A stretch of DNA of 64,000 nucleotides from Clostridiales bacterium (GCA_021736985.1 JAIPEW010000015.1:1764-65763); one strand, 5' to 3'. Counted from the stretch's first letter, positions 15,875 to 63,398 are shown. The notes: generated from the sequence alone by a model not told the origin. Numbers and translations are program-made.

Positions 15875-15904
15875 AAAATCCCCCCGGTTTTTTAGATAAT
15901 TATA

Positions 15905-16276: not shown

Positions 16277-16290
16277 TATTTTGAATGAGA

Positions 16291-30645: not shown

Positions 30646-30663
30646 ATGGCATACTCCCTGGTA

Positions 30664-31308: not shown

Positions 31309-31310
31309 GC

Positions 31311-31694: not shown

Positions 31695-31709
31695 TAAAAT
31701 CGCCTCACT

Positions 31710-36897: not shown

Positions 36898-37997
36898 CCC
36901 AATTCACTCCCTATCTCTACTGCCCCTTTATCAAACCCAATAACACCGCCGGAAAAAGCATACAATATTGTACCGACCTTAATGCTATTGCTGCAGTACT
37001 GTACTGCACGCCTGCTGGCTGCAGATGCAATAGAATTATATACTTCTTCCATGCCTCTTTCTTTTAAAAGCTGCACTGATTCCTCTGCCGTGTTAAGCTG
37101 CATTATTTTTTTCACCAGCTCCTTTTCAGCACCTAGCACAGCTGCATGAGCAGCCAGCGTTTCCCGCCTGGCATCAGCCAGGCGGCTGTGCGTAAGGAAA
37201 ATGCCTGCAGCTACCTTAAGCAGTTTTCCAAGATGACCGAAAAGTATAACACCTTCAAACCCTTTTCGAGCACTTTGTTCCAACATTTCACCTATGTAAT
37301 TACTTGTTTCCATTACAGTTTCAGGATAAAAACCCAGTGATTCAGCTTTATTTCGTCCCATGCGCCCGGGAGTTAACACGCCAAACCGGTATCCCAGGGC
37401 AATTACCTGGTCTATCTGCGGCACCAGGGACCTTATATACGCATCATCGGACATTGGCTTTACTATACCCGTAGTACCTAGTATGGAAATGCCGTTTTTT
37501 ATACCTAATTTAGGGTTCAACGTTTTTTCTGCCAGTTGTTCGCCACCCTGTGCTTCTATGGTAATTGATGCTCCTTTTTTCTCTCCCAGCAGCTGGACTG
37601 CTTCATATTTAATCATAGCACGGGGTACAGGGTTTATGGCCGGTTCACCTAATGGCACTGAAAGGCCGGGCCTGGTAACTGTACCTACTCCTTTACCACC
37701 GTAAATTGATAAATCCCCTTCTTTAAGAGTAACACGGGCAGTAATCTCCATGTTATTAGTTACATCAGGGTCATCACCGGCATCTTTAACTATTGAAGCT
37801 TCCGCCTCTCCTGCCTGGCAAACGACCTTTTTAACCGGCAGAGTCAAAGTGCTCCCTCCGGGAATATTGATATCAACTTTATCCAATTTTCTACCCTCTA
37901 AAAGCACTGTCAGAGCAGCCCTGGCTGCTGCTGCTGCACAACTTCCTGTAGTATAGCCGCTGCGCAGCTCAAATTTCCCGGATTTATCGTATACCAT
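36882..37997 (-). CDS. cbiD: cobalt-precorrin-5B C1-methyltransferase
   Basis: N-terminus LRSGYTTGSCAAAA, characteristic of CbiD. Confidence 0.9.
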   Translation of the reverse strand: MVYDKSGKFELRSGYTTGSCAAAAARAALTVLLEGRKLDKVDINIPGGSTLTLPVKKVVCQAGEAEASIVKDAGDDPDVTNNMEITARVTLKEGDLSIYGGKGVGTVTRPGLSVPLGEPAINPVPRAMIKYEAVQLLGEKKGASITIEAQGGEQLAEKTLNPKLGIKNGISILGTTGIVKPMSDDAYIRSLVPQIDQVIALGYRFGVLTPGRMGRNKAESLGFYPETVMETSNYIGEMLEQSARKGFEGVILFGHLGKLLKVAAGIFLTHSRLADARRETLAAHAAVLGAEKELVKKIMQLNTAEESVQLLKERGMEEVYNSIASAASRRAVQYCSNSIKVGTILYAFSGGVIGFDKGAVEIGSELGWQKV

Positions 37998-39364: not shown

Positions 39365-39377
39365 ATTATAACCTCCG

Positions 39378-39655
39378 AAAATTAAAAGCTCCTTACACAA
39401 AGGCAAGGAGTTTATATGCGGTATAAGTAATATGCTTTTAATACCGGCTAAGACTCGCCTCTCCTCGAAGGGGTCTAAAATAAGCACAGGCAGGTTTCCT
39501 GGCTTCCGGATCTTCCTTCCCCTACACCTTCCCGCCCGTTTCGTTTCGGGCAGTGGCTGTTTAGTAAGAGTTGTCCCCGGTTACAGTGGCGGGCCCGCTT
39601 AGGATTCACACCTAATTCCCTATACCCCAAAGGCACCTGTACCTTATTTTTTATT
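39378..39655 (-). promoter_or_regulatory. cobalamin riboswitch with terminator expression platform
   Basis: Reverse strand contains AGGGAATTAGGTGTGAATCCTAAGCGGGCCCGCCACTGTAACCGGGGA and the B12 box AGCCACTGCCCGAAA...GGGCGGGAAGG. It is followed by the terminator CTCCTT-gcctttgtgt-AAGGAG + CTTTTAATTTT (39389-39410). Confidence 0.9.
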
Positions 39656-39667
39656 AACTTTCTTAAA

Positions 39668-39696
39668 ATTATAATTAATTTTTCTATAAAAAACAA
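39668..39696 (-). promoter_or_regulatory. putative sigma-A promoter of the riboswitch-cbi operon
   Basis: Reverse strand reads TTGTTT-17 nt-TATAAT. Confidence 0.5.
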
Positions 39697-39717
39697 GAAC
39701 AAGAATTTATAATAAGT

Positions 39718-40677
39718 TTATCTGCTATTTATTTCTTTGTGCAGATCCCACAATTCTCCGGCCAGCTTTTCAACATGATCCTTACCCCTGTAACCGTTTT
39801 CCAGGACATCCAGCCAGCGCCCGGGGATTGCATTTTTCCCGTGATATCCTCCGGCAATCGCGCCGCACATAGCACCAATCGTATCGGTATCACCACCCAG
39901 CCCAACTGCGCAGACAAGGGCATTTTCAAAACTGGTATGGTTAGATAAAAAAGCATAAATAGCAGTACACACGGATTTATGTGCCTGCACCCCGTTGCCA
40001 AGAGTAGTTATAACTTCTCCGTGCTCCTCTTTATTTTCTATCAATTTTTCAACTTGTTTTAGTACATGCACATACTCATCTGAGATTGGTTTAATAAAAT
40101 CTTTTAACTGGTATATAAAATTTTGGACATCTAATTTTCCCTGCTCATTTCCTACGGCCAGGCTTACTGCCCTGGCCTGTAATACAGCACCAGCCAGGCC
40201 CAGGGGATGCTGGTGCGTTATATAACTACTGCCCCGGGCAACCTCGATCAATTTTCCAGGATCATTGTAATACAGGCATCCTACTGGAGCTATACGCATA
40301 GAAGCACCATTGCCAAACGAACCACCTGAAAAAACCATGGCACCTGCCCGGTACCATTCCACGCCTTTCTTTATTAAAGACAATGTCTGCAAAGCACCGC
40401 CGCCGTATCCCCTGCGAACATCACAATTTTCAGCCAGAGCCCGGGCCATATCCGGCCCGTTAAACCCTGTATTTTTTATTAGTGATTCAGCTACGCCAAT
40501 CATTAATTCCGTATCATCAGTATATGTACCTCTACCCAGGCGAGCTTCCAGCATATCCCTTATCTCGCCGTATTTAGAAGTTATAATATCATGATCCCAG
40601 CCCTCAACCGGCATACCCAGAGCATCACCGGTAAATGTACCCAGCAGGGCCCCGGCAAACTTATCCTTCCCGGGCAA
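39718..40677 (-). CDS. ADP-ribosylglycohydrolase family protein
   Basis: N-terminal G.LLG...GDALG.P.E motif and C-terminal GGDTDT.GA..GA..G motif of the DraG/ARH family. TTG start. Confidence 0.8.
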   Translation of the reverse strand: MPGKDKFAGALLGTFTGDALGMPVEGWDHDIITSKYGEIRDMLEARLGRGTYTDDTELMIGVAESLIKNTGFNGPDMARALAENCDVRRGYGGGALQTLSLIKKGVEWYRAGAMVFSGGSFGNGASMRIAPVGCLYYNDPGKLIEVARGSSYITHQHPLGLAGAVLQARAVSLAVGNEQGKLDVQNFIYQLKDFIKPISDEYVHVLKQVEKLIENKEEHGEVITTLGNGVQAHKSVCTAIYAFLSNHTSFENALVCAVGLGGDTDTIGAMCGAIAGGYHGKNAIPGRWLDVLENGYRGKDHVEKLAGELWDLHKEINSR

Positions 40678-40771
40678 TTACATGCACCGCCTTCAGATTC
40701 AGAATTTTTGTAAAACTTCTATTTGTTTTCTCTAAATCCTGCAGATCTCTGAAAAATAAATTATTTCCTAC

Positions 40772-41494
40772 TTACTCTCCTGCTGTCATTTCTTGTAATA
40801 TACCCGCTGCTGCTTTTGCCGGGTCTGGTGCTGCAATAATAGGACGCCCCACTACTAAATATGCTGCACCTGCATTTACTGCATCAAGCGGGGTTACTAT
40901 TCTTTTTTGGTCACCTGCAGCTGATCCTGCCGGGCGAATCCCGGGAGTGATTATTTTAAAATCTTCTCTACAAGTATTTTTTATAACCGGGGCTTCCCGT
41001 GCTGAAGACACTACCCCGTGCAAACCGGCATCTTGCGCCATTAAAGACCAGTGATGCACCTGGTCTTTAACTTCTCCGGAGATACACAGCTCGTTATTTA
41101 ATTCCTGCTTACCAATACTGGTAAGTATAGTCACTGCAACAACCAGCGGGCACTGTTTTCCCATGCGTACAGATTCGTCTTCTGCAGCTTGCGCTGCAGC
41201 TTTCATCATATCCTTTCCCCCAGCTGCGTGAACATTTATTATAGATGCTCCGCAACCCGTCAATTTCTTAACAGCCCGGGACACAGTATTAGGAATGTCG
41301 TGAATTTTTAGATCAACAAAGACTTCTCCGCCCTGTTCCCGGACTATATTAATAATACCGGGCCCACAGCTGTAAAAAAGCTCCATGCCTATTTTAAACA
41401 TTCCCACGTAAGGAGTTAATATTCTTGTTAAATCCAGCGCTTTTTCTTTGCTGTCTACGTCCAGCGCAGCTATCAAGCGTTTTCTAGCTTCCAC
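40772..41494 (-). CDS. pyrF: orotidine-5'-phosphate decarboxylase
   Basis: LIAALDV, DLK.HDIPNT and VVGRPI motifs. GTG start after GGGGGG. Confidence 0.93.
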   Translation of the reverse strand: MEARKRLIAALDVDSKEKALDLTRILTPYVGMFKIGMELFYSCGPGIINIVREQGGEVFVDLKIHDIPNTVSRAVKKLTGCGASIINVHAAGGKDMMKAAAQAAEDESVRMGKQCPLVVAVTILTSIGKQELNNELCISGEVKDQVHHWSLMAQDAGLHGVVSSAREAPVIKNTCREDFKIITPGIRPAGSAAGDQKRIVTPLDAVNAGAAYLVVGRPIIAAPDPAKAAAGILQEMTAGE

Positions 41495-41515
41495 ATTGAT
41501 CCCCCCTGAACTTAA

Positions 41516-42436
41516 CTAGTGAGCTCTGCCAATAAGATCTTTTATGTCTGCAATATCATTATCTATCAAGTACTTTTCCAGGTTTTCAATTATATCCATA
41601 GTTGCCGTAGGATTTATAAAATTGCCTGTACCTACAGCCACGACAGAAGCTCCTGCCATTATAAACTCTAAAGCGTCTTCGGCAGTAGTAATACCTCCTA
41701 TCCCAATAATCGGCAAGTCAATTTCCCGGTAGACCTGCCATACTGACCTTACTGCAACAGGTTTTACAGCAGGACCGCTCAACCCTCCAAAGTTATTTCC
41801 CAGGGAAGGACGCATAGTATTTATATCAATTTTCATTCCCAGCAGTGTATTAATCATAGATAAAGCATCCGCCCCGGCTCTAGCTACTTTTTCTGCCACT
41901 TTAACTATGCTGGAAACATTGGGAGACAATTTTATTATAACCGGAAGATTGGTACTTGCCTTTACTGCCCCGGCAACTTCTGCAGCAGACTCCGGATCAC
42001 TACCGAACTGTAGCCCGCCTTTTTTTACATTAGGACAGGATATGTTTACCTCGATACCCGCAGCACAGGAATTATTTAGTTTTTGAGCCAGTTTAGCATA
42101 ATCAGCCGGGGTATCGCCGGAAATATTTACAATTACAGGCACATTTTTATTTTGCAGATGCGGCAGTATTTCATTCACCACGGTTTCTATACCTGGATTC
42201 TGCAAGCCGATGGCATTGAGTATACCGCAAGGAGTTTCCTCTATGCGCGGCGGGGGATTACCTTGACGCGGGTGCAGAGTAGTACCTTTCACAACCAGCG
42301 CACCCAGCCGAGAAAGATCAACATAATCAGCATATTCATTCCCAAAACCAAAAGTGCCTGAAGCTGTAGCTACCGGGTTTTGCATTTTTATACCTGCAAT
42401 ATCAACTGCTAGATTTACATTTTTATTCATTTCCAC
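41516..42436 (-). CDS. pyrD: dihydroorotate dehydrogenase 1B, catalytic subunit
   Basis: NPV..ASGTFG, NISCPN and GGI....DA.EF..AGAS motifs. Confidence 0.93.
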   Translation of the reverse strand: MEMNKNVNLAVDIAGIKMQNPVATASGTFGFGNEYADYVDLSRLGALVVKGTTLHPRQGNPPPRIEETPCGILNAIGLQNPGIETVVNEILPHLQNKNVPVIVNISGDTPADYAKLAQKLNNSCAAGIEVNISCPNVKKGGLQFGSDPESAAEVAGAVKASTNLPVIIKLSPNVSSIVKVAEKVARAGADALSMINTLLGMKIDINTMRPSLGNNFGGLSGPAVKPVAVRSVWQVYREIDLPIIGIGGITTAEDALEFIMAGASVVAVGTGNFINPTATMDIIENLEKYLIDNDIADIKDLIGRAH

Positions 42437-43206
42437 ACCACCTCACCGGCAGAAAAAACCGGGCCGTCAACACAAACACGGCTGTATGTATATTCTTTTT
42501 CTTTTTCTTGATATGTCTTGCACACACATGAAAGGCATGCACCTACACCACAGCCCATTTTTTCTTCCAGGGAAAACTGGCCGGCAGCTTTATTTTCTTC
42601 CATGTCCCCGGCCAATTTCTTTAACATGGGAACCGGGCCGCAGGCAAACACCTGCACATCCTTATTAAGATAAGGCAAGCAGGTATCCGTAACCGGGCCC
42701 CGGTACCCCGCAGAACCATCGTCAGTAGCTGTACGTACGCAGTGGCCCAGAGCTTTTATGTCCTCCACTGCCAGGAGATGCTCTGAAGAACTTGCTCCTA
42801 TGAAAACGTCCACCTGCATTTGCATCCCTGATAATTCTTGCAGTAAAAAATAGAGCGGTGCAGCGCCAATACCACCGCCAACCACCAGCGGGGTACCGCT
42901 GCAAGACATATTAAAACCATGTCCCAGCGGGCCCATAACATCTAACTTATCCAGGCTGTCCAACATGGACGTACCGCGCCCTGCTTTTCTATAAAGCATA
43001 CTTATGGTTTTACCGCTTCTTTGGACTGCATGTATACTAATAGGGCGGCGAAGCAGTGGATCCATTGTGCCAGAACACTTTACATGTAAAAACTGCCCTG
43101 GCTTTGCTCCTGCAGCCAGCTCCGGGGCATATAATTTTAACAAACCGTAACACGGCTTAATTTGTTTTTTTTCTATAATATCAAAAGTTTTTTTTACGGG
43201 CTTCAT
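42427..43206 (-). CDS. pyrK: dihydroorotate dehydrogenase electron-transfer subunit
   Basis: FAD/NAD-binding domain (RRPISI) plus a C-terminal 2Fe-2S motif, CG.G.C..C. Confidence 0.9.
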   Translation of the reverse strand: MKPVKKTFDIIEKKQIKPCYGLLKLYAPELAAGAKPGQFLHVKCSGTMDPLLRRPISIHAVQRSGKTISMLYRKAGRGTSMLDSLDKLDVMGPLGHGFNMSCSGTPLVVGGGIGAAPLYFLLQELSGMQMQVDVFIGASSSEHLLAVEDIKALGHCVRTATDDGSAGYRGPVTDTCLPYLNKDVQVFACGPVPMLKKLAGDMEENKAAGQFSLEEKMGCGVGACLSCVCKTYQEKEKEYTYSRVCVDGPVFSAGEVVWK

Positions 43207-43272
43207 TATTTTTTTTCCTCCTGCCGCGCTGGTTTTAATAACCCCCCGGGTTCTTCCGGGGGGTAGTAATAA

Positions 43273-46200
43273 CTAGGCATGATAATCCTGCAGCGCTATA
43301 ATGTCCATTCCAAAACCTTCTTTAAACTCTCTCAACACTTCAAGTGCTGCCTTAGCTGTATCCAGCGACGTTAATGCAGGAACTCCCATTTCCACGACCG
43401 CCCTGCGAATGCGGAAACCATCTCTTTCCGGAACCTTGCCCTTTGTCAAGGTGTTCACTACCAGGTGAATTTTTTGCGCCCGCAGCAAGTCTACTATATG
43501 TGGGGAACCTTCTCCAATCTTGTTGACTCTTTCAACACTGAGCCCCTTCTTCTCAAAATAATCAGCAGTTCCCCCCGTAGCACAGATATTATAACCCAGT
43601 TCTGAAAAACCTTTAAAGATATCATATGCTTCTTCTTTATCCTTGTCCGCTATAGTAGCCAGGATTGTACCCCGGGACGGGAACACGTTGCCTGCAGCAG
43701 CTAAAGCTTTGTATAACGCGGCAGGATAAGAACGGGCAACTCCCATTACTTCTCCGGTCGATTTCATTTCTGGGCCGAGAGAAATATCAACATCCACCAG
43801 CTTGGCGAAGCTAAATACAGGTGCTTTTACTCCCACTATGCCGGGCTCGTCGTAAAGCCCTCCTTCATAGCCCATCTCCCTGAGCTTCCTCCCCATAATA
43901 ACTTTGGTAGCAAGGTTTACTGCAGGAATATTAGAAATTTTACTCATATACGGCACAGTACGGCTGGCCCTGGGATTAACTTCAAGCACGTACAGGTCAC
44001 CATTATATAACACGTACTGTATATTAATCATACCTCTTACATTAAGCTCCAGGGCCAGCCGTGTAGTATAATCCAATATTTTATCTTTAATAGACTGGTC
44101 GAGCCCGTTGGGTGGATAAGCAGCAATGCTGTCGCCCGAGTGTACCCCTGCTCTTTCTATGTGCTTCATTATGCCGGGAATTAAGACTCTTTCACCATCA
44201 GCAACTGCATCTACTTCCAGTTCTACACCCAGGAAATATTTATCAACTAATACAGGGTGTTCCGGGGTTATTAATACAGCGTTATTCATGTAATTGCGCA
44301 GCTCATCCATGTTATAAACAATCTCCATGGCTCTGCCGCCAAGCACATACGACGGGCGTACAAGCACCGGAAAACCAAGGTCCAGGGCAATTTGCTCGGC
44401 CTGATCAAAAGAAAACGCAGTACCTCCCGGCGGGCGGGGAATATCCAGGTCATTCAGCATGGAATCAAAACGCTCCCGGTCTTCTGCCCTGTCTATGTCT
44501 TCCATTGATGTACCCAGTACTTTAACATCTTCCTTGCTAAGTTGTTCGGCCAGGTTAATAGCCGTCTGCCCGCCGAACTGTACAATTATTCCCTCCGGCT
44601 TTTCCTTTTCCAGTACATTTAATACATCTTCTAAAACAAGGGGTTCAAAGTATAATCTATCTGAAGTATCAAAATCGGTGCTAACCGTTTCCGGGTTATT
44701 ATTTAAAATAATAGCCTCTATGTTTTCCTGGCGCAGCGCCCAAACAGAATGCACGCAGCAATAGTCAAATTCAATTCCCTGGCCGATTCGAATGGGCCCA
44801 CCGCCTAAAACAATTACCTTTTTATTATCTCCCGTTTTTACTTCATCTTCTTGTTCGTAACAGGAATAATAATAAGGAGTCTGGGCTTCAAATTCTGCAG
44901 CACAAGTATCAACCATCTTGTAAACCGGCTTCACCCCGTGAAAGGCAAACATTTCACGAACCTCTTTTTCTGTCATACCAGTTACTTCAGCAATATACTT
45001 ATCTGATATCCCTGTTTTCTTTACATCCTGCAGTAGTTTTGGAGCTAATACATTTTTCCCGAGCTGGCGAAGTGTTTCTTCCAACTGCACAATGTTATGT
45101 ATTTTCTGCAGAAAAAAGCGGTCAACTCTAGTTATATTAAATATGCGCTCCATTAACATCCCGCGTCTAAGCGCCTCGGCAACTACAAACAACCTCTGGT
45201 CATCAGGGTAACGGAGTCTACTTTCAATTTTCGCATCGGACATTTCTCTTAGTTCCGGTATAATCAAACTGTGCAAGCCTATCTCCAGGGAACGCACGGC
45301 CTTCATAACAGCTTCCTCCATAGTGCGTCCTATAGACATAACCTCACCGGTTGCCTTCATCTGCGTCCCCAGCGAGCGGTCACCCAGTATAAACTTGTCA
45401 AAGGGCCAGCGGGGAAACTTGATTACAACATAATCTATGGTAGGTTCAAAACTGGCATAAGTTTTTCCGGTAACAGCATTTCTAATTTGATCCAGGGTTA
45501 AACCGACGGCTATCTTGGTAGCTACCTTGGCAATAGGATAACCTGTAGCCTTGGAAGCCAGAGCCGAAGATCTTGACACTCTGGGGTTTACTTCTATGAC
45601 GTAATAATCAAAACTCTGGGGATCAAGTGCAAACTGTACATTACATCCTCCCTCTACTCCAAGGGCACGAATAATTTTCAGGGAAGCAGTACGCAGCAGC
45701 TGGTACTCAACATCACTCAAAGTTTGAGCTGGAGCAGTTACTATACTGTCACCGGTATGAATACCCATTGGATCAAGGTTTTCCATGCTGCATATAGTTA
45801 TACAGTTATCATTGCTGTCCCGCATAACTTCAAACTCTATCTCTTTCCAGCCCACTACACACTTTTCTATAAGCGCCTGGTTAATTATGCTGGCATTAAG
45901 TCCTCTACTGGTAGTATCTATTAAGTCTTCCATACTATCTACAATGCCGCCCCCGGTACCTCCCAGAGTATAAGCAGGGCGCACAACCAGCGGGAAGCCT
46001 ATTTTTTTTGCGAAATCAACTGCATCTTCCACTGTACTAACAATAGTGCTTTCAGGAACCGGCTCATTAATGTTGGCCATGGTAGATTTGAACTCTTCCC
46101 GGTCTTCAGCACGCTCAATGGCTTCCAGTTGAGTTCCCAGCAATTCAACACTTTCTTCCTGCAAAACACCTTCTTTTGATAACTTTAAAGCCATGTTTAG

Positions 46201-46485
46201 ACCTATCTGGCCGCCCAGGCTTGGAAGAAGACCGTCAGGCTTTTCTTCCCGTATTACTTTTTTTACAAATTCTTGAGTTATCGGTTCTATATATACCCGG
46301 TCAGCCATGTTAGCATCAGTCATTATAGTAGCCGGATTGCTGTTAATCAGGATTACTTCCAGTCCTTCTTCTTTGAGAGCCTGACAGGCCTGTGTACCTG
46401 CATAATCAAATTCAGCAGCCTGTCCTATTATAATAGGCCCTGAACCAATAACCATTACTTTTTTTATATCTTTTTTGCTTGCCAT
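43273..46485 (-). CDS. carB: carbamoyl-phosphate synthase large subunit
   Basis: 1070 aa with duplicated ATP-grasp halves and an MGS-like C-terminal domain. Confidence 0.96.
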
Positions 46486-46486
46486 A

Positions 46487-47575
46487 TTACTTACCCTCCC
46501 CTGGAAGCATCATTTTCATAAACGAGTCAAAAAGGTAATCTGATTCTTGCGGTCCCGGAGCTCCCTCCGGGTGATATTGAACTGAAAATACTGGTAAACT
46601 GTTGTGCTTGAGTCCTTCCACGGTGTTATCATTTAAATTTATATGCGTTACTGAAACATCCAGCCCGGCCAGGCTATTTTCATCTACAGAAAAACCGTGA
46701 TTGTGAGAAGAGATATAAACTTTTTCATTCTGTAAATCTTTTACGGGATGGTTTGCGCCACGATGCCCAAACTTCATTTTATAAGTTTTTGCTCCCAGGG
46801 CCTGGGCAATAACCTGGTGTCCAAGGCAAATGCCGAACACAGGGGCCCTGCGGCTTATCAATTCTTTTACTGTCTCTACAGCATAAGGAACATTTTCAGG
46901 ATCCCCGGGCCCGTTGGACAGCATTACCCCCGCGGGCTCAAGTTCCAGTATATCGCTTGCATCCGTGCTTGCAGGAACTACTACAACTTCGCACCCGCGC
47001 TGCGAGAACCTGCGTATAATATTTAACTTAGAACCAAAGTCCATCAGCACTACCCGCGGACCTTCACCGGATACTGTAAAAGACTCCCGGCAGGTTACTT
47101 CAGGCACCCAATTTTGAGTGCTGTAATCCGGACAAGCACGTGCTTTTTCAATTACCTTTTCTTTATTATTTGTATTTGTTTTAATAGCAGCCCGCATAGT
47201 TCCATGATCGCGGAGGTGCCGGGTAAGAGCCCGGGTATCTATGCCGGCTATTCCTATAATCCCCTGCTTTGCCAGAAAATCCGACAACCGGTAAGTGGCA
47301 CGCCAATTACTTGGGTAATCACTTTTTTCCCTTACTACAAAACCGCGTATAAAAGACCTGTCTGCCTCGTAATCCTCCCTATTTATTCCATAATTGCCAA
47401 CAAGAGGATAGGTCATTACAACTATTTGACCGCAATAAGAAGGATCAGTGAGGACTTCCTGGTATCCTGTCATCCCTGTATTAAATACAGCCTCACCGCA
47501 TTGATCTCCCTCTGCACCAAAAGCCTGACCCTCAAAAACTGTTCCATCTTCCAGGGCTAATAATGCCTTCAACAA
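46487..47575 (-). CDS. carA: carbamoyl-phosphate synthase small (glutaminase) subunit
   Basis: Catalytic GICLGHQ and H.PE triad motifs. Confidence 0.95.
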
Positions 47576-47595
47576 AAAGCACCTCCGCTAAACTT

Positions 47596-48870
47596 TTAAT
47601 GTTTGTATACCATAATGCCGTTTAAAATAGTTATTAAAACTTTGCCAGTCAACTTTTTTCCTGCAAAAGGTGTATTTTTACTTCTGCCGGCAAAAAACTC
47701 CGGGTCTACTTCCCACTCTTTGTTTGGTTCAATTGCAATAATATCAGCAGGCATACCGGGCACCAGCGTACCAGCACATATCCCCAGTATCCGTGCCGGG
47801 TTTAAAGTAATTTTAGCCACAGCATCCTCAACATTTAAAATCCCCGGTTTAACAAGCTCATTCCAGATCAGCCCGGCAGCAGTCTCCACTCCTGCAATGC
47901 CAAACGGGGCCAGGTCATATTCCACATCTTTTTCTTCCATAGTATGCGGCGCGTGATCAGTGGCAATTACATCTATAGTACCGTCGGCCAACCCTTCTTT
48001 TACTGCTTCCACGTCTTTTGCCTCGCGCAGGGGCGGGTTAACCTTGGTAAAAGTGTTGTAACCTTTAACTGCTTCGTGAGTCAGCGTGAAATGATGAGGA
48101 GCAACTTCTGCAGTCACATTCACTCCCCGTGCTTTTGCCTCTCTTACAAGCTGAATAGAACGGGCAGTACTTACATGCGCTATATGAAGGCGGCATCCAG
48201 TTTCTTCTGCTAAAATAATATCTCTTGCTACCATCACCTCTTCTGCCGAAGCAGGTATTCCCTTTAATCCTAGTGCAGTAGAAACAGCACCTTCATGCAT
48301 AACTCCTTCGCCTGCTAAATCCAGGTTTTCACAATGAGAGATTACCGGCAGGTCAAGCATGGAAGCATACTGCATGGCCCTGCGCATAACTCCGGCACTG
48401 TTCACCGGGCGCCCGTCATCAGATATAGCTGCGGCACCAGCATCTTTCAACTCGGCAATTTCTGATAGTAGTTTCCCCTCGCTGTTCTTGGTTATAGCAC
48501 CAACAGGATAGACCCTGGCATTTCCTGCTTCCTTTGCCCTGTTTAAAATAAAATTAATTACAGAAGCATTATCTGCCACAGGATTAGTATTAGGCATGCA
48601 GGCTACTGATGTAACCCCGCCTCTTAAAGCAGCAAAAGTTCCTGTTTGTATAGTTTCTTTTGCTTCAAATCCCGGTTCCCTGAGATGAACATGCATGTCC
48701 ACAATCCCCGGCATAACAATTTTTCCAGCTGCATCTATAATCTCTGCATCCGGGGACTCCAAACTTTCCCCTACAGAAGCTATCTTAGCGTTCTCCGTTA
48801 ATACATCGCAGTTTTTTTTAATATTCCTTGCAGGGTCAATCACAATTCCGTTTTTAATCAACAGGCACAC
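47596..48870 (-). CDS. pyrC: dihydroorotase
   Basis: [10 protein letters not shown] and DHAPH motifs. Start set to GTG 48870, 8 nt after GGAGGTGA; the track start at 48882 has no usable spacing. Confidence 0.9.
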
Positions 48871-49798
48871 TACTAGCTTCACCTCCCCTGGCCAAAAGGT
48901 ACAACACGGCCATCCTAACTGCTACACCGTTATTTACCTGGGCCTGTATTACTGACTGCTTGCAATCTGCTGCATCACAGGTAATCTCTACTCCCCTGTT
49001 AACGGGCCCGGGATGCATAACTACCGCCTCGCTAGAAGCAAGTTTTAACCGCTCTTTATTAATACCATAAAGGCGGGCATACTCCCGCAGCCCCGGGAAA
49101 AGTCCTTCTTCCTGCCTTTCCTTTTGTATTCTCAACACATAGATTATGTCAGCCCCATCCAGGGCCTCGTCCAGGTTGTTGTACACCCGGGCTCCCAGTT
49201 CTTCTATCCCCGGAGGAACAAGAGTTGTTGGCCCACACACACTAACCCGGGCACCCATCTTTTTAAAAGCCAGTATACCAGACCTGGCTACCCTGCTGTG
49301 CATAATATCTCCAACAACAACAATCTGCAGTCCTTTTATCGTCCCTTTTACCTCCTGGACAGTAAACAGATCTAAAAGAGACTGGGTTGGGTGCTCATGC
49401 GCACCATCTCCCGCGTTAACTACAGGAAAAGGGACTGTCTGAGCCATCATCGCAGCAGCGCCCGGCATAGGATGCCTTAATATTATTACATCAGCCCCCA
49501 GTGCCTCCAAGGTTCGTGCCGTATCTTTAAGACTCTCTCCCTTGGAAACACTGCTAGCACTCCCCGATACGTTTACGCCCTCAGCACTCAAGTATTTTGC
49601 TGCTAATTCAAAAGATGTCCGCGTACGCGTACTGGGTTCATAAAATACATTTGCTACAGTACGTCCCTTGAGGGTAGGCACTTTTTTTATAGGCCGGGAT
49701 ATTATTTCCTTCATGGGTCGTGCTGTATCCAGTATATACTGTATTTCCATCTCACTCATATGCTCTATCCCGATCAAGTCTTTGCCTCGCAGTGTCAA
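48854..49798 (-). CDS. pyrB: aspartate carbamoyltransferase catalytic subunit
   Basis: STRTR and HP.Q motifs. TTG start after AAGGAGG. Confidence 0.94.
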
Positions 49799-49821
49799 GT
49801 CAGATCCTCCTTATTGCTTAT

Positions 49822-49915
49822 AAAAAAACCTCGTCCGGATATATTCCAAACGAGGCCACCAAAGGTTTAGCGAACATCCCTTGGCAGCCTCTCTGGACCG
49901 CTTAAAAGGACAGCA
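49822..49915 (-). promoter_or_regulatory. PyrR-dependent transcription attenuator (pyrR-pyrB intercistronic)
   Basis: Reverse strand carries the PyrR binding loop GGTCCAGAGAGGCTGCC (49899-49883). It is followed by the terminator CCTCGT..ACGAGG + T7 (49855-49822). Confidence 0.85.
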
Positions 49916-49921
49916 TTTTTA

Positions 49922-50600
<679 letters not shown>

Positions 50601-52341: not shown

Positions 52342-52374
52342 CTTTTTCACGCACTGCAAATAGACGCTATGATT

Positions 52375-52636
52375 CTGAACGCAGATAACAATCTGCAAAT
52401 TAAAGGGCCGGGGATTTCTGGAAAGTAGCAGAGTCCAGGTCGCTGCATAGCCCATCATTTGTGAAGTGGGAGGTGGGAAGTGTGACAATTTGAGGAAGTC
52501 TGCTGCGTAAACTTTTTCTTTTTCCCACCTCTAATTTCCCACTTCTCACCTCTGCCCTTTGCCCCGGTCCTCCACCTGGCTGTCCAGAAAAATTTTTCAT
52601 ACTCCATTGCAAACCAGAGGCCCGTGAAAGTTTAAT
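52375..52636 (+). repeat. mosaic intergenic repeat, copy C
   Basis: Full main unit. Its 3' junction module (GTTTAATT) overlaps the stop codon of the convergent gene at 52632. Confidence 0.9.
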
Positions 52637-53591
52637 TCTCAGGGTAAAGTAAAGGGTTTAGATATCTCTTCACCAAACTCTCCCCGTACTCACCAGATGG
52701 CGCCCAATTACCCCCCAGTTCCTCAAAGGAAGAAGCTCTTCCTTTAATTACAGAAAAATGCCTGGGGTCCGTTGTAACATTCTTGGGATAACCCGGGGCC
52801 CCGGCATATAAGGCCAGGTGATCCAGGTGAGCTGCCACCCCATCTTCCCAGGTATTAAATTTCTGGTGAGCCCCGGGATCATTGTTTGCGCCCCCCTCAT
52901 GTATTTTCATGCCGCAGGGATTTTTATAATTCTCTGACACCACTCCGTTAAACTTGCCAAACCCGGTTTCCTTTGCTGCCTGGGCATAAGCACCCGCCGG
53001 GTTCACTCCACCGTGGCTATCAACCAGTTCCCAGTAAAGCTCAGCGAGCTCTATAAAAACGTCGCTGGCTCCCCGGCTTTTTGCCCACTGCTGCGCTTGT
53101 TTTACACCAATTTTTGCCGAACTTATAATAGGAGTATTATTGCTTTTATCTTGTTCTTTAGTTAATTTATCAAATGAAATTAAAACCGTTTTAGTATTCT
53201 CGTTCCAGCTTACTTTTGCACCGAGCGACTCGCTTACAAACCTGACTGGAACCATAGTTTTTCCTTTTATTATTACAGCAGGCTGCTGTAATATAATTTT
53301 ATCACTATTAACTTTTACTTCTTTATACCCCGGCTTCAACTTTATTACCGTATTGTCCCTGATAGCGACCACTCTCTTTTCTTTTGACTCCCAGGTTACA
53401 GAAGCTCCCAGGGAATTAAAAATTTCACGAACCGGCAGCATCACTCTATTATCAATAATTTGCGGCAGGCAGGTATAATCTTGTGCCTCTCCATTAATTT
53501 TTACAGCAATGCTGCTGCCGGCAAAAGCATAATTACTACTTAACAAAAGCAATAATAAAAAAACAAATAAAATTGTAGTTATGTTTCTCAC
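52632..53591 (-). CDS. secreted cell-wall hydrolase: copper-amine-oxidase-like N-domain plus glucosaminidase domain
   Basis: Signal peptide, a 'stalk' domain pattern (ING......P.I.N.R.M.PVR.....G..V.W), and a C-terminal LytD-type glucosaminidase-like region. Confidence 0.7.
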   Translation of the reverse strand: MRNITTILFVFLLLLLLSSNYAFAGSSIAVKINGEAQDYTCLPQIIDNRVMLPVREIFNSLGASVTWESKEKRVVAIRDNTVIKLKPGYKEVKVNSDKIILQQPAVIIKGKTMVPVRFVSESLGAKVSWNENTKTVLISFDKLTKEQDKSNNTPIISSAKIGVKQAQQWAKSRGASDVFIELAELYWELVDSHGGVNPAGAYAQAAKETGFGKFNGVVSENYKNPCGMKIHEGGANNDPGAHQKFNTWEDGVAAHLDHLALYAGAPGYPKNVTTDPRHFSVIKGRASSFEELGGNWAPSGEYGESLVKRYLNPLLYPEN

Positions 53592-53719
53592 TTATGTCAC
53601 TCCAATAGCATTATTTTTTTATTTAATTCTTTATTATACAAAAAAAACCTTTTTCATATAAATTTTTATAAAAAATAATAAAAGATCGGTTTTGCCGGTT
53701 TATTTCCACAGTTGATACA

Positions 53720-53810
53720 CTAAACTTTAACAAGCCTTTCGCCCACAACAAAAAATGAAAGCTACAGGCTAAGCAACGCATCTGAACCGCTCCACTCCGC
53801 CCTTTCTATG
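53720..53810 (-). repeat. mosaic repeat, core-less degenerate copy F
   Basis: The reverse complement GAAAGGGCGGAGTGGAGCGGTTCAGATGCGTTGCTTAGCCTGT|AGCTTTCATTTTTTGTTGTGGGCGAAAGG joins the family left flank directly to the junction module. Confidence 0.6.
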
Positions 53811-53948
53811 AAGTAGCGTTTTAAAACCAGGGTTTTCTGATAAAACTATTAAAATAATTTTAAAATCTAAAATATTGTTATTTAATATAAAAAAACTTAT
53901 AATATTTTTTGTTATTCATATATATTGCAGAAATAGGAGGAAGTTTGT

Positions 53949-55292
53949 ATGTACCAAAGAGAAAACTGGGCTTCAAGAGTAGGTTTTATTTTAGCAGCAG
54001 CAGGCTCAGCCATAGGCCTGGGGAATATCTGGCGATTTCCTTATATGGTGGGAGAAAACGGTGGTGCAGCTTTTCTTTTTATTTATTTAATTGCTATCAT
54101 ACTTATTGGTTATCCCACGATTGTCAATGAAATGATTATTGGTAGGAAAACTCATCTTAACCCCGTAGGAGCATTCAAATCAATCGCCCCCGGAGCACCA
54201 TGGTGGCTGGTAGGCGCCATGGGGGTATTTAGTGGATTCCTTATATTATCTTATTATTCCGTTGTAGGCGGGTGGTCTCTGGCTTATATTTATAAAACAG
54301 TGATAGGCGTTCTTAATGTTGGGGCAAGCGAATTTGATACGCTCTTCGCAAACCATATAACCAATCCTATAGAACCCATAATATGGCACGGGATATTTAT
54401 GGCTTTGACCACAAGCATTGTAGCTGCCGGAATAGTTAAAGGCATCCAGCGCTCAGTACAGGTATTAATGCCACTATTATTTATTATACTGGTCTTACTC
54501 ATGGCACGGGCAGTAACGTTACAGGGTGCAGGAGAAGGACTGGCATTTTTATTAAAACCTGATTTCAGTGAAATCACTTCCAGCACGTTCCTGGACGCCA
54601 TTTCCCAGGCATTTTTCACCCTGAGCCTGGGCATGGGATGTATGATAACTTACGGGAGTTATATACGTGATAAAGATGAAATACCAGGAAGCGCCGCATC
54701 CGTAATCGGGCTGGATACATTGGTCGCTGTAATGGCAGGGTTTGCCATTTTTCCGGCAGTATTTGCCCTCGGGTTCACGCCTAACGCCGGGCCCGGCCTT
54801 ACCTTCATCACCCTGCCGGCCGTATTTTCTAAGATTCCCCTGGGAATATTTTTTGGATTTTTATTCTTTGCCCTCTTAACCGTGGCTGCACTAACTTCAG
54901 CCTTTTCCCTTCTGGAAGTAGTAGTAGCCTGGCTAATCGACGAATACAAATGGTCCCGCACCAAGGCCACAATAACCCTTGGTATATTGATATTTCTTGC
55001 GGGGATACCTTCCAGCCTCGGTTATAGTACTTTAAGCAGTTTTAGCTTCCTGGGTATGGATGTTTTAGACACTTACGATTGGCTGACCAACTCAATATTG
55101 CTGCCATTCGGAGGTTTGTTGACAGCTATTTTTACCGGTTACATATGGGGTACCAAAAATGCTATTAAAGAGGGGAATAAAAATAACCCTAAAATCCTGC
55201 TGGGCTCCTGGTGGAGTTTTCTGATACGCTATGTTATACCTGCAGTAATATTTATCATAATGTTAGCAGGAATTTGGGATACTTTTAAATAA
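53949..55292 (+). CDS. sodium-dependent transporter, neurotransmitter:sodium symporter (SNF) family
   Basis: N-terminal signature W.SR.GFILAAAGSAIGLGNIWRFPY. RBS AGGAGGAAG. Confidence 0.92.
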   Translation: MYQRENWASRVGFILAAAGSAIGLGNIWRFPYMVGENGGAAFLFIYLIAIILIGYPTIVNEMIIGRKTHLNPVGAFKSIAPGAPWWLVGAMGVFSGFLILSYYSVVGGWSLAYIYKTVIGVLNVGASEFDTLFANHITNPIEPIIWHGIFMALTTSIVAAGIVKGIQRSVQVLMPLLFIILVLLMARAVTLQGAGEGLAFLLKPDFSEITSSTFLDAISQAFFTLSLGMGCMITYGSYIRDKDEIPGSAASVIGLDTLVAVMAGFAIFPAVFALGFTPNAGPGLTFITLPAVFSKIPLGIFFGFLFFALLTVAALTSAFSLLEVVVAWLIDEYKWSRTKATITLGILIFLAGIPSSLGYSTLSSFSFLGMDVLDTYDWLTNSILLPFGGLLTAIFTGYIWGTKNAIKEGNKNNPKILLGSWWSFLIRYVIPAVIFIIMLAGIWDTFK

Positions 55293-55293
55293 C

Positions 55294-55336
55294 AAGTAAG
55301 CTGGGATAAATTCCCGGCTTACTTATTATTTGTTTT
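55294..55336 (+). terminator. intrinsic terminator of the SNF transporter gene
   Basis: 13-bp stem AAGTAAGCTGGGA / TCCCGGCTTACTT followed by ATTATTTGTTTT. Confidence 0.8.
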
Positions 55337-55341
55337 AAATA

Positions 55342-55603
55342 GAAAACTACCTAAAAACTATGGCCAGGGCCGGGGGATTTCCGGAAGGTAGCGGAGTCCG
55401 GGTGCGCTGCATAGCCCGTCATTTGCGAAGTGTGATGTGGGAAGTGTGATAATTTGAGGAAGTTATGAAGACTTTTTCTTTTTCCCACCTCTAATTTCCC
55501 ACTTCTCACCTCTGTCCTTTGCCCCGGTTCTCCACCTGGCTGTCAGAAGAGTTTTCATATTCCGTTGTGGGCCTAACGATCGTGGGCATTTAATTCTAAA
55601 ACT
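55342..55603 (+). repeat. mosaic intergenic repeat, copy D (archetype)
   Basis: Complete unit running from GAAAACTACC through the left flank, 5' arm, apical loop, pyrimidine-rich 3' arm, CTGTCAGAAGAGTTTTCATA, GTTGTGGGC..CGTGGGCATTTAATTCTAAAAC. A further degenerate fragment lies at 55673-55705. Confidence 0.9.
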
Positions 55604-55822
55604 AACCTCACCAATTGGATTAACTGGTATTTAGACACTGCCTCTTCAAGGATAAACTGTAAAACAAATTTTCAGAACGGAGTTTTCGATTTAGAATTTA
55701 AAATTTTTTTATAAACTTTATATTTTTGAATTTTTAGTATCTAAATAAACATATACTCGAAAAAAGTTATTAATTTTTTGTAAGGAATGTAAAACTTATT
55801 GATTGTACGTTCCTCCCACCCT

Positions 55823-60232: not shown

Positions 60233-60253
60233 TTTATCCGTTCTCCTTTAGTT

Positions 60254-60668
60254 TGAAAACTTTGTTTTTGCTACTTGCCATTGACCCTCATTCGCTCCGT
60301 TTACCTCAAAGGCCAAACTAAAGCTAAGATTCAAGTCGCTCTCTCCGGAGCAACAGCAAGCTTAGTAGTTTTCATACTCCGGTGTGAACCGGAGGCTCGT
60401 GGGCGTTTTAATTTGAAAACTCTCTAAAAAGCTATGGTACTAAACGCAGGGTAAATTGAAAAGGCGTTGGATTGTTGCGTTGCTCAACCCGTCATTTGCG
60501 AAATATGATATGAAAGGTGGGAAGTGTGACAATTTGAGGAAGTCTGCTGCGTAGAGTTTTTCTTTTTCCCACCTCTAATTTCCACTTCTCACCTCTGCCC
60601 TTTACCCCGCCCTCCACCCTACTGTCAGAAGAGTTTTCATACAGCCAGAAACTCGTAAATATTTAATA
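60254..60668 (+). repeat. mosaic intergenic repeat, copy E (accessory module + main unit)
   Basis: Accessory module at 60255-60421 and main unit at 60422-60668. The 3' end overlaps the pheA stop codon at 60663-60665. Confidence 0.9.
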
Positions 60669-61927: not shown

Positions 61928-62956
61928 CTATACAACAGCTGGAGATAATTTGCCATTGATAACCCTGGACAGTTCTTCAATCTTACCAGCAAGAGTATAC
62001 ATTTCTTCGGGATACAAAGACTGGGGCCCGTCACTCAAGGCCTCCATGGGCTCCGGATGCATTTCTATTATCAAGCCGTCTGCCCCGGCTGCAATTGCAG
62101 CCATGGACATGGGGGAAACTAATTCCCGTTTTCCCGTACCATGGCTGGGATCTACTATCACAGGCAAGTGGCTCAACTCTTTTACCAGGGGAACAGCACT
62201 TAAATCAAGGGTATTGCGCGTATATTTTTCAAAACTCCTTATTCCACGTTCGCACAGCACAACATCAGGGTTACCCTCCGATAATATATATTCAGCTGAC
62301 ATAAGCCATTCTTCTACTGTAGCTGAAAGGCCCCTTTTTAAAAGAACTGGTTTGCCGCACCGGCCTACAGCTTTTAGCAGCTTAAAATTCTGCATATTCC
62401 TGGTTCCTATTTGCAGCATATCTACATAATTTAAAGCAATTTCCAGGCTGTGCTCATCCATTACTTCTGTCACTGCAGCCAGCCCGTTTTGTTCAGCTGC
62501 TTCTGCCATGTACTCCAGTCCTTTTTCTTCAAGTCCCTGGAAACTGTACGGTGATGTTCTCGGCTTGTAAGCTCCTCCCCTTAAAATACTTGCACCTGCA
62601 CCTGCAGCATGATATGCTGCAGCCTGAATTTGTTCCCTGCTCTCAACAGCACACGGGCCTGCAATTAACACTGGTTCACTTTCACCAAAAACGCTGCCTT
62701 TAACGTCAATACATGTATTACTCTCATGAACTTCCCTGCTGACCAGCTTGAATGGCTTCATGATAGAAATTACTTCCTTAACCCCGGGTAAAGTCTCCAG
62801 GTTCAAAACTTTAAGTGATTTTCTGTCTCCTACGGCACCAATAACAATTCTTTTAACACCTTTAATCAAGTAAGATTGAAAACCAAAACCAGTTAATTTA
62901 TCTTTTACAGCATTAACTTCTGCTTCACCTGCATTTACATCCATAACAATAACCAT
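61928..62956 (-). CDS. aroF: 3-deoxy-7-phosphoheptulonate (DAHP) synthase, type I-beta with N-terminal regulatory domain
   Basis: Core motifs GPCAVES, LRGGA.KPRTSPY, KRG and DPSH. ATG at 62956 follows GAAGGAGG. The longer track ORF reads through the T-box terminator. Confidence 0.9.
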   Translation of the reverse strand: MVIVMDVNAGEAEVNAVKDKLTGFGFQSYLIKGVKRIVIGAVGDRKSLKVLNLETLPGVKEVISIMKPFKLVSREVHESNTCIDVKGSVFGESEPVLIAGPCAVESREQIQAAAYHAAGAGASILRGGAYKPRTSPYSFQGLEEKGLEYMAEAAEQNGLAAVTEVMDEHSLEIALNYVDMLQIGTRNMQNFKLLKAVGRCGKPVLLKRGLSATVEEWLMSAEYILSEGNPDVVLCERGIRSFEKYTRNTLDLSAVPLVKELSHLPVIVDPSHGTGKRELVSPMSMAAIAAGADGLIIEMHPEPMEALSDGPQSLYPEEMYTLAGKIEELSRVINGKLSPAVV

Positions 62957-62988
62957 GCAAATTCCTCCTTCAATTTTTAAATATAAAT

Positions 62989-63398
62989 AAAAAAAACCGC
63001 TGCTCGCCCCCATGAGGACGAAAGCAGCGGCTTCCGCGGTACCACCTCGCTTGGTCATAAAGACCCACTAAGCAGGTACGGGAATAAATAATTCTCTAAT
63101 AAAATAAAAAAATTTTTCGCCTTAGGGACGAAAAATTTCGCGTTACCACCCTAGTTGGCATATATAAATGCCCACTTCTCTGGTAAGGTACGGGAACATT
63201 GATTACTCCGATACCCCTTTCCTTTTAACGGTGGAAATTTCCGTCACGGCCTACTTAATGATCGTGTTCAGCCGTGCAGTTCAGGAGAGAACTTCAGCAA
63301 GTCGTGTATTAGGAGTGCTCTCAGTCCACGACACTCTTTCCCTGTAAAACTGGGGCCTACCTACTTTTCTCCATCATCACCAGTACTTATTAAATTTT
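62989..63398 (-). promoter_or_regulatory. T-box leader with two successive T-box/terminator modules
   Basis: Reverse strand shows Stem I elements, T-box core AACTAGGGTGGTAACGCG (63156-63139) with a terminator, and a second core AAGCGAGGTGGTACCGCGG (63052-63034) with a terminator CCGCTGCT..AGCAGCGG + T8. Confidence 0.85.

Follow-up and report, generated by a model that had tools for sequence, protein, structure and literature searches.

A modular, lineage-restricted family of small non-coding mobile repeats, probably MITE-like, in the intergenic spacers of a chromosomal housekeeping region

The repeats dispersed over the window (i.e., the whole 64-kb stretch of DNA that was analyzed) are a real, non-coding, lineage-restricted family of small mobile repeats. 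Our main reading, to which we give a probability of roughly 0.55, is that the family consists of modular, lineage-restricted, small non-autonomous MITE-like elements. The family matched nothing described. Its short inverted repeats, its TTTAR junctions, the presence of filled and empty sites, and the clustering and nesting of its units place it, on anatomy, within a known kind, the MITE/BOX-like mobile repeats. The first-pass annotation had left the repeats unassigned, which stands in that no Rfam, phage or plasmid match was found, but not as to kind; the family is less exotic than that annotation implied.

Distribution and architecture of the repeats

The window is a core chromosomal housekeeping region carrying priA, def, fmt, rsmB, rlmN, coaBC, pheA, aroG, and rarA together with the cbi and pyr operons, and its other ORFs mostly follow the gene order annotated in relatives. 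Among 40 ORFs of the window scanned with Pfam there was no transposase, integrase, reverse transcriptase or cas gene, in agreement with the first-pass annotation. A T-box and a cobalamin riboswitch were identified elsewhere in the window at the Rfam gathering threshold.

In total, at least ten units were found at seven intergenic places, occupying about 2.3 kb (3.6%) of the 64-kb window. The ten units included four type 1 units (A, B, D, and E), one variant unit (inv), four type 2 units, and one mini unit, and ranged in length from 105 to 390 nt. Six loci had been reported previously; all six are real and were present at or near the coordinates given, but the family is larger than that count, and its junction module occurs nine times, not six. 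The modules beyond the earlier six were located upstream of A (15954-16007), upstream of E (60366-60421), and at 12573-12627 on the minus strand, the last of these between inv and def. All units were intergenic and lay in either orientation, clusters were arranged head to tail, and every large intergenic spacer of the window except the T-box leader was filled by units. Four of the five type 1-like units were on the plus strand, which is the C-rich, lagging-type strand here; over the nine module-bearing units, leaving out the mini unit, six were on one strand. The earlier description of the repeats as repeated, mosaic, hairpin-forming, and intergenic was borne out. The units, and the parts of the archetype unit D, were as follows:

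55334-55603, plus strand: type 1 unit D (archetype), with junction motif TTTAAATAGAAAACT at 55334-55348
55370-55410, plus strand: 5' scaffold of D, with the 5' strand of helix P1 (CCGGGG) at 55370-55375
55391-55394 and 55407-55410, plus strand: small hairpin P2' of D, GCGG pairing with CTGC
55437-55463, plus strand: purine-rich 5' arm of D, GTGGGAAGTGTGA(C/T)AATTTGAGGAAGT, of GAAGTGG-type heptads
55464-55478, plus strand: apical loop and 3' side of the apical stem of D, with the T5CT5 run next
55473-55527, plus strand: pyrimidine-rich 3' arm of D and 3' strand of P1 (CCCCGG at 55522-55527)
55540-55559, plus strand: right inverted repeat block of D, CTGTCAGAAGAGTTTTCATA, inverted partner of the left end TGAAAACT
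55560-55594, plus strand: variable ~30-nt extension (TTGTGGGC..CGTGGGCA) and terminal TTTAAT of D, the 3' part of the junction module
55589-55594, plus strand: TTTAAT at the right edge of D, followed by TC and then TAAAACT
55589-55700, plus strand: mini or decayed unit adjoining D, bounded by TAAAACT ... AGTTTTCG and by the 9-bp inverted repeat AATTCTAAA / TTTAGAATT
52369-52636, plus strand: type 1 unit B, with a degenerate left junction (TATGATTCTGAACG)
16001-16277, plus strand: type 1 unit A, with the best-formed hairpin (z = -6.2) and an extra heptad in the 5' arm
15905-16007 (start approximate), plus strand: truncated type 2 unit directly upstream of A, with module m1 at 15954-16007
60415-60667, plus strand: type 1 unit E, whose 5' scaffold is the most decayed of type 1
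60247-60421, plus strand: type 2 unit directly upstream of E, with module m3 at 60366-60421
12754-13139, minus strand: variant unit inv, with left end, scaffold, right inverted repeat, and module (m7) as in type 1
12573-12753, minus strand: type 2 unit with module m8, between inv and the def ribosome-binding site
53706-53850, minus strand: solitary decayed type 2 unit, with module m9 at 53710-53764

Comparison of the window with itself recovered the four plus-strand copies and the inverted copy. Using blastn, copy D was 87% identical to B over 208 nt, 83% to A over 219 nt, and 82% to E over 168 nt, and matched the ends of inv at 91% over 54 nt and 88% over 50 nt. A profile built from A, B, D, and E scored those four copies at E = 1e-78 to 1e-89. 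The 20-mer CTGTCAGAAGAGTTTTCATA occurred four times in the window at three or fewer mismatches, against 0.01 occurrences expected. The profile of the ~55-nt junction module found its nine copies at E = 3e-15 to 8e-6 and no other match in the window. The four shared blocks were as quoted in the first-pass annotation, including the near-invariant 3' arm (92-98% identity between copies); the 5' arm was 96-100% identical among A, B, D, and E.

The units are modular. Type 2 is a second, shorter unit class with its own short interior; only its termini and module are common with type 1, the module end being shared in all four copies, and both full-length type 2 copies begin with GAAAACTTTGTTTTTG. What had been taken for a core-less relic at 53720-53810 is present, but as the solitary decayed type 2 unit. 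In type 1 units and inv the two halves of the scaffold pair and enclose the interior. The interior of inv (~190 nt) is a branched insert unrelated to the interior of type 1, while its ends and scaffold are those of type 1; the interior is therefore exchangeable.

Insertion sites in related genomes

The nearest relatives compared had 59-65% PriA identity, and proteins of Desulfallas, Desulfoscipio, and Pelotomaculum were about 50% identical. In five relatives the gap between priA and def was 17-19 nt, as against 572 nt here. The 572-nt block consisted entirely of inv and a type 2 unit, which account for the whole difference: the priA stop codon had not shifted, and directly after the last unit came the ribosome-binding site native to def, AAAGGGGTG. 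Since priA and def are 17-19 nt apart in relatives and split here, the insertions have probably changed the operon structure. Across the relatives' syntenic loci (13-22 kb each) there was no type 1 copy, module or other repeat family. For the B, D, and E loci, a search with RarA yielded no homologues but distant ones from Bacillaceae.

One relative (L014; JGI 3300017698), a different genus with a PriA 63% identical to that of this genome, contained a single homologous element of ~250 nt (7497-7745, minus strand), with a MarR gene on one side and a small zinc-ribbon-like gene on the other. This spacer was 374 nt long in L014 and 105-114 nt in two other relatives (L011 and L018). The L014 element is homologous to inv, with which it shares GGTGG.CTTTCCGGA..AGCGGAG, AGCCCGT.AAAT, CTTAGGGCGT, an ending in ...GGTTTCCATTTAAT, and the exact 15-mer GGAGGAAACCACCGG. 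It was flanked by TTTAG on both sides and ended in ...CCATTTAATA followed by TTTAGTTAAT, with which the downstream gene's shared promoter sequence takes up again. The ~30-nt extension after the right repeat was absent from the L014 element, and its interior was a branched insert, unlike the type 1 hairpin.

The comparison of filled with empty sites that had been proposed earlier gave two orthologous sites that are empty in relatives, and these comparisons of spacers show the units to be insertions relative to related genomes. Measured against what is usual for MITEs, the units are small (under ~500 bp) and have no coding capacity, and the family is dispersed (ten units at seven sites) and polymorphic for insertion at the two orthologous sites; an autonomous IS with matching ends was found neither in the window nor in scans of GTDB and IMG/VR with the right end. 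A Logan contig (SRR12088346) with an identical SNF-family transporter spanned only 52547-55383 of the window and broke inside B and D, as expected in a short-read assembly for a repeat with many copies in the genome.

It is hardly credible that the copies are non-mobile, i.e., decaying local duplications or chance similarity of low-complexity DNA. Such an origin would fit the copies seen spanning <48 kb of one contig, with none in the public collections searched. It does not fit unrelated spacers occupied in both orientations by units with precise common ends, flanking genes that are syntenic with relatives lacking the units, a homologous element at a different site in another genus, or the breaks of an independent assembly inside the repeats.

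Unit ends and junctions

The left end of every unit is (T/A)TGAAAACT, preceded by TTTAAT or TTTAG. An inverted copy of this end, AGTTTTCAT(A), is found near the other end of every unit, where it starts the module. The core of the inverted repeat is 8-12 nt, with an imperfect extension up to ~24 nt; in inv, 17 of ~24 aligned positions match, and in E, 20 of ~26. Six TGAAAACT...AGTTTTCA pairs at no more than one mismatch delimited six units, and the relatives' sequences contained no comparable near-exact pair. The right inverted repeat is subterminal, with ~35 nt more following it: ~30 variable nt (TTGTGGGC-N8-CGTGGGCA) and then TTTAAT, in which most units terminate. The shortness of the inverted repeats and the non-terminal position of the right one are features that count against a MITE-like reading.

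The heptamers GAAAACT and AGTTTTC had been proposed as the bounds of the units. At the left this holds for A, D, and E, which open with GAAAACT, but inv opens with GTAAACT, and GAAAACT was present 3' of some modules only, where it more likely marks the beginning of the unit that follows. The motif TTTAAT-NN-GAAAACT at no more than one mismatch occurred at six places in the window, and all six were left edges of units. Three of these had no preceding module: the sites after the priA stop codon, the SNF terminator, and the mgsA ribosome-binding site, the last being adjoined by the type 2 unit at 60247-60421, which starts with TTTAGTTTGAAAACT. TTTAA or TTTAG was found at both edges of D, of the block formed by inv and its type 2 neighbor, of the E block, and of the L014 element. 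Because the right TTTAR is a constant part of the element, a target-site duplication and a site-specific junction look alike at these edges.

The terminal TTTAAT holds TAA on both strands, and three neighboring genes (priA, the gene ending at 52632, and pheA) use or overlap it as their stop codon. In B it provides the stop codon of the minus-strand gene 52632-53591, and in E it overlaps that of the pheA-like gene (60663-60665). Both of these cases had been noticed previously; the priA stop codon (13135-13137) can be added, as it lies within the TTTAAT at the left edge of inv, which begins immediately 3' of it.

The module showed no conserved fold. Only one of eight modules folded significantly as ssDNA, and the consensus fold contained six weak pairs with zero covariation. 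At the left end only small, variable palindromes were found. These results bear on two alternatives to a MITE-like element. The first, which we hold to be quite improbable, is that the units are cassettes of a site-specific recombination system and are not moved by a DDE enzyme, with ..GTGGGCA-TTTAAT-NN-GAAAACT.. as an attP/attC-like site that recombines with TTTAR; the head-to-tail arrays would then share one junction in the manner of integron cassettes. The arrays are indeed strictly head to tail with a full junction between units, a TTTAR core is present at both outer junctions, the interior is exchangeable between constant ends, and the AGTTTTC that opens the module and the GAAAACT after it recall the R''/R' geometry of attC. 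Yet the module has no conserved fold (one of eight significant as ssDNA), the presumed core lacks dyad symmetry, the arrays consist of two units only, the cassettes would carry no genes, and there is no integrase in the window.

The second alternative is a non-autonomous relative of IS200/IS605-type elements, similar to PATEs, in which a Y1 TnpA would move single strands and insert them 3' of TTTAR(NN) without duplication, the right end re-creating the target. A fixed pentanucleotide to the left of every unit with a similar one ending the unit, the head-to-tail pile-ups, a hairpin potential that tolerates G-T pairs, and the location of four of five type 1-like units on the C-rich, lagging-type strand would all be accommodated. 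We nevertheless consider this origin very improbable: conserved subterminal hairpins are absent at both ends, inverted repeats are present at the unit ends, no Rfam match was obtained, and the orientation bias over the module-bearing units is just six of nine.

Coding capacity and database searches

ORFs within the copies occupy three different frames because of indels of 1, 2, 4, and 7 nt, and a protein-coding reading was rejected as the frames are not conserved between copies. A search with the longest repeat ORF gave no homologue, and exact look-ups of two repeat ORFs gave none. Frameshifting indels inside the best conserved part argue that the elements are non-coding, as the first-pass annotation had concluded. 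The 7-nt indel that it cited between B and D, however, is misplaced: B and D are in register, and the extra heptad lies in A and E.

The Rfam check suggested with that annotation was run. No family matched the units at the gathering threshold, and permissive scans of each locus likewise gave no family, returning only sub-threshold hairpin look-alikes (miRNA precursors). Two likenesses seen by eye, to SRP RNA helix 8 (UCCGGAAGG.AGC) and to RNase P CR-I (GAAAGUCCGG..UAGGGC), were unsupported by covariance models. As to other known sites and ends, ARAGORN found no tRNA or tmRNA fragments that could serve as att sites, and a Tn7-like end (TGTGGGC) was without an inverted partner. A dif/Xer site was considered for ATATGTAAACT, which we take to resemble the XerD arm of Bacillus subtilis, and was rejected as 11-mer matches occurred at chance level (40 found, 37 expected); GC skew indicated no replication terminus within the window.

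The 20-nt right end gave chance matches only in GTDB (185,579 species genomes) and none in IMG/VR. Patterns of the family gave nothing above chance in GTDB, JGI metagenomes, and IMG/VR, and BLAST against phages and plasmids found no similar DNA.

Conservation and folding of the interior

The type 1 interior is a long imperfect hairpin of GAAGTGG/CCACTTC heptads: its 5' arm repeats with a period of 7 and is partnered by a pyrimidine-rich 3' arm. The copies differ in length by 7 nt, A and E having an extra heptad that B and D lack and that the other arm does not compensate. Folded on the sense strand, the core had z-scores of -6.2 (A), -2.7 (B), -2.3 (D), and -1.2 (E); antisense-strand folds were weaker in A, B, and D, E being the exception. 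The inv unit and the L014 element folded at z of about -2.9 to -3.7. The apical stem has a G-C pair in A and a G-U pair in B, D, and E.

Conservation was uneven along the type 1 units. Within the hairpin arms, 2-5 of 79 positions differed between copies (94-97% identity), as against 35-60 of ~117 positions (30-52%) in the flanks, which take in the 5' scaffold, the module interior, and the portion of the 5' arm that varies (Fisher p = 5e-5 to 5e-14). This is not the pattern left by a simple transposition burst and subsequent neutral decay, and the arms appear to be held alike by either selection or gene conversion. The substitution spectrum between copies was one of ordinary transitions (G>A 26, C>T 18, T>C 12, A>G 7), on which diversity-generating or deaminase-type hypermutation of the variable module was rejected.

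Two helices of the scaffold changed in a compensatory manner. For P1, the L014 element and inv have CYGGUGG:CCACCGG where D and B have CCGGGG:CCCCGG, a U-A pair being swapped for G-C. In P2' (GCRG:CYGC) the third pair varies: the L014 element has G-C there, B has A-U, and inv, D, and A have G-U. Some of the pairing in both helices is lost in A and/or E, and RNAalifold on the four type 1 copies gave a covariation term of about 0. Across two genera and six sequences, these changes are no more than suggestive of a selected RNA or ssDNA structure. Like the uneven conservation of arms and flanks, the compensatory helix changes are a point against the MITE-like reading.

A sigma-70-type promoter was not called at eight of nine modules, and the degenerate m9 alone overlapped a marginal 9/12 match; the module was therefore rejected as a sigma-70 promoter (TTGTGG-17-TTTAAT) or sporulation-sigma promoter. 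The -10-like TTTAAT has T, not A, at position 2. In a consensus scan of the units, a promoter-like site was found upstream of B only and a terminator-like hairpin in A only. The apical stem of A together with T5CT5 scores as terminator-like on the plus strand; the stems of B, D, and E are weaker and G-U-rich.

These data weigh on the possibility that the repeats are multicopy structured sRNA genes read from the given strand, with P1 and P2' as the conserved fold and mobility secondary, a reading that we regard as unlikely. By analogy with LhrC, purine-rich ribosome-binding sites would be the pairing targets of the C/U-rich 3' arm (CCCACCUC, UCACCUC, CCUCCACC). The better folding of the sense strand in A, B, and D agrees with such a role, as do the G-C/G-U switch of the apical stem, which keeps pairing on the sense strand only, the P1 swap, and the P2' series of G-C, G-U, and A-U. 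The folds of inv and the L014 element, arms far more conserved than flanks, and scaffold blocks (including exact GGAGGAAACCACCGG) shared with a genome of 63% PriA identity point the same way. Against this, eight of nine modules lack a called sigma-70-type promoter. The terminator-like hairpin, called in copy A only, lies in the middle of the conserved region, so that the best conserved 3' arm would be left out of the terminated transcript. The covariation is anecdotal with 4-6 sequences and its RNAalifold term about 0, P1 and P2' are broken in A and/or E, the orientation to neighboring genes is arbitrary, and there is no Rfam match.

Mobility and RNA function could also be combined, and we judge it distinctly unlikely that the unit is a mobile, modular non-coding RNA gene whose scaffold is a structured RNA or ssDNA intermediate and whose heptad payload is kept by selection. 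The scaffold, which is shared between genera and carries an exchangeable payload domain, would comprise P1, P2', the block AGCCCGUNAAAU and, in elements of the inv type, also GGAGGAAACCACCGG, and the payload would act on the host, e.g., by sequestering ribosome-binding sites or ending antisense transcription. The family would in that case not be plain selfish DNA.

Proposed mechanism of mobility

Under the MITE-like reading, we think mobilization in trans by an enzyme encoded elsewhere the likeliest mechanism, at slightly better than even odds. A transposase or recombinase from elsewhere in the genome would recognize the TGAAAACT-type ends and move the units, insertion would target TTTAR sites, and every insertion would regenerate a TTTAR. 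Such regeneration would explain both the tandem pile-ups and the three stop codons in terminal TTTAAT. The hairpin interior may be kept alike by gene conversion or by doing something, possibly as an RNA or ssDNA hairpin and possibly as a one-way terminator.

The repeat family explains all unusually long spacers of a tightly packed region, the T-box leader apart, as well as the breaks in the short-read assembly and the ending of three genes in one TTTAAT. As a MITE-like family it is new and comes from an uncultured lineage related to Desulfotomaculia, for which no described small repeats were found. If the helix changes and the arm conservation are confirmed, such a small mobile element, with a selected RNA or DNA structure as its cargo, would be a rarity.

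Comparison with known systems

Integron attC sites are recognized by an R''-L''/L'-R' hairpin, with the IntI integrase and attI nearby. The repeats resemble integron cassettes in that head-to-tail units end in a ~55-nt module, content is exchangeable between constant ends, and the module opens with 7 nt that recur in inverse form directly after it. They differ in having no attC bottom-strand hairpin, no ORFs, and no IntI or attI, and in being scattered over many intergenic sites and not gathered in one array. An assignment to integron cassettes or attC was rejected on the module, which has no conserved fold, and on the lack of an integrase in the window.

PATEs lack inverted terminal repeats and have a conserved subterminal hairpin at either end, and REP/BIME sequences are imperfect palindromes of 20-40 nt with a GTAG-type head and alternating orientation in clusters. 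Like PATEs and REP/BIME-RAYT systems, the repeats here are short, non-coding, and intergenic, with a fixed sequence at the left junction, head-to-tail clustering, and hairpins. In contrast to PATEs, subterminal hairpins are not conserved, inverted terminal repeats are present, and the window has no Y1 transposase; a PATE was rejected on the fold found in one of eight modules only and on the inverted repeats. REP/BIME was rejected as the units are 105-390 nt long, stand head to tail, and share no GTAG-type palindrome.

LhrC1-5 of Listeria are multicopy CU-rich regulatory sRNAs of Firmicutes. Both families have several similar copies, some of them in tandem, C/U-rich stretches fit for ribosome-binding sites, and a hairpin with a U-run. 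In the repeats described here, however, no promoter was detected, the CU-rich arm comes after the terminator-like hairpin, and the copies are insertions with transposon-like ends.

The inverted repeats of Correia elements (CREE) of Neisseria are 26 nt long, as against a core of 8-12 nt here. There is no sequence similarity between the two, and the right repeat here has a ~35-nt extension. Compared with MITEs, a TA or TTTAR duplication is here inseparable from a site-specific junction, and no parent IS was found. The likeness to bacterial MITEs and Correia elements lies in a size of 100-400 bp, many non-coding copies that lie between genes in either orientation, terminal inverted repeats (subterminal on the right here), a fixed target rich in A and T, a strong tendency to form hairpins, the ability to carry promoter or terminator signals, and filled and empty sites between related genomes, traits that were drawn for this comparison from PMC10969869.

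Pneumococcal BOX, RUP, and SPRITE repeats and other MITEs are small repeats that cluster and nest, some of them carrying terminator-like hairpins (PMC10969869). Like them, the repeats described here have constant end modules that pair around a middle that varies (boxA-boxB(n)-boxC in BOX), are predicted to form stable RNA hairpins, include a terminator-like hairpin of the kind found in SPRITE, and occur in bunches (PMC10969869). Sequence and host are unrelated, and the middle consists here of 7-nt repeats. Whereas BOX varies in the copy number of boxB, the middle is here swapped whole. We know of no counterpart in BOX, RUP, or SPRITE to the junction motif TTTAAT-NN-GAAAACT. By analogy of anatomy, the family most resembles the Correia elements and the pneumococcal BOX/RUP/SPRITE repeats, which are its closest relations in kind.

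Repeat Units at Gene Ends and at Assembly Breaks

The TAA stop codons of priA, of a gene encoding a Cu_amine_oxidN1/glucosaminidase protein and of a pheA-like gene fell within TTTAAT, the motif found at the edges of the repeat units.

13135-13137, TAA stop within an edge TTTAAT
52632-52634, TAA stop within an edge TTTAAT
60663-60665, TAA stop within an edge TTTAAT

Two explanations present themselves: gene ends frequently carry the target motif, or the stop was supplied by the element. When the organism was assembled independently from short reads, a 2837-bp contig (Logan SRR12088346; L010) corresponded to window positions 52547-55383 and ended inside the long repeat B at one side and inside the long repeat D at the other. 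These breaks suggest that the genome contains many more copies of the repeat.

The Variant Unit and Its Homolog in a Relative

The interior of the variant unit 'inv', which differs from that of the type 1 units, contained two interleaved inverted repeats (i.e., GTGCGC..GCGCAC interleaved with GTCCAGCACTCAG..CTGAGTGCTGGAC).

12935-12947 / 12850-12862, inverted repeat, approximate, minus-strand reading
12975-12985 / 12863-12870, inverted repeat, approximate, minus-strand reading

The two repeats cannot form together as nested helices; they would therefore represent alternative structures or else a pseudoknot. The scaffold of 'inv' was homologous to an element in the syntenic locus of a relative (L014; host genome PriA identity 63%).

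L014, 7497-7745, minus strand, single element of ~250 nt (JGI 3300017698 contig Ga0187647_1000300)

This element was neighbored by a MarR gene on one side and a 123-aa gene on the other, and the spacer harboring it was only 105-114 nt long in the relatives L011 and L018. Its predicted fold had an energy of -94 kcal/mol (z = -3.7), and it had no match in Rfam.

Gene Content Between coaBC and priA

In L011, L014 and L018 (7300-9400), the interval from coaBC to the small gene lying upstream of priA contained two to three additional genes, namely the zinc-ribbon-like gene of 123 aa, MarR, and a gene for a PALP enzyme. Two other relatives (L015 and L019) carried the PALP enzyme alone. These genes were missing at window positions 15875-16326, where only the long unit A and a remnant of a shorter type 2 unit were present; their absence may reflect a deletion or rearrangement linked to the repeats. 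The stretch separating unit A from the coaBC end contained a hairpin.

16290-16328, perfect 16-bp G+C-rich hairpin (AATACACACGGCAGCC...GGCTGCCGTGTGTATT)

Read on the minus strand, this hairpin is probably the coaBC terminator and is not a member of the repeat family.

Base Composition and Known RNA Regulators

The cbi and pyr/car operons (30000-50000) had a G+C content of 43-45%, compared with 38-41% in the remaining window. GC skew was strongly negative (-0.15 to -0.22) across most of the window and approached zero at 52-60 kb, where genes change strand. Two known RNA regulators were present.

39472-39655, minus strand, cobalamin riboswitch (114 bits)
63121-63386, minus strand, T-box leader (118 bits, exceeding the gathering score)

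The cobalamin riboswitch headed the cbi (cobalamin synthesis) operon, and a 75-aa ORF overlapping it (39475-39702) is probably spurious. The T-box leader was located upstream of a DAHP synthase gene (61928-63058) adjoining the pheA-like gene, an arrangement suggesting that aromatic amino-acid synthesis is controlled by tRNA sensing.
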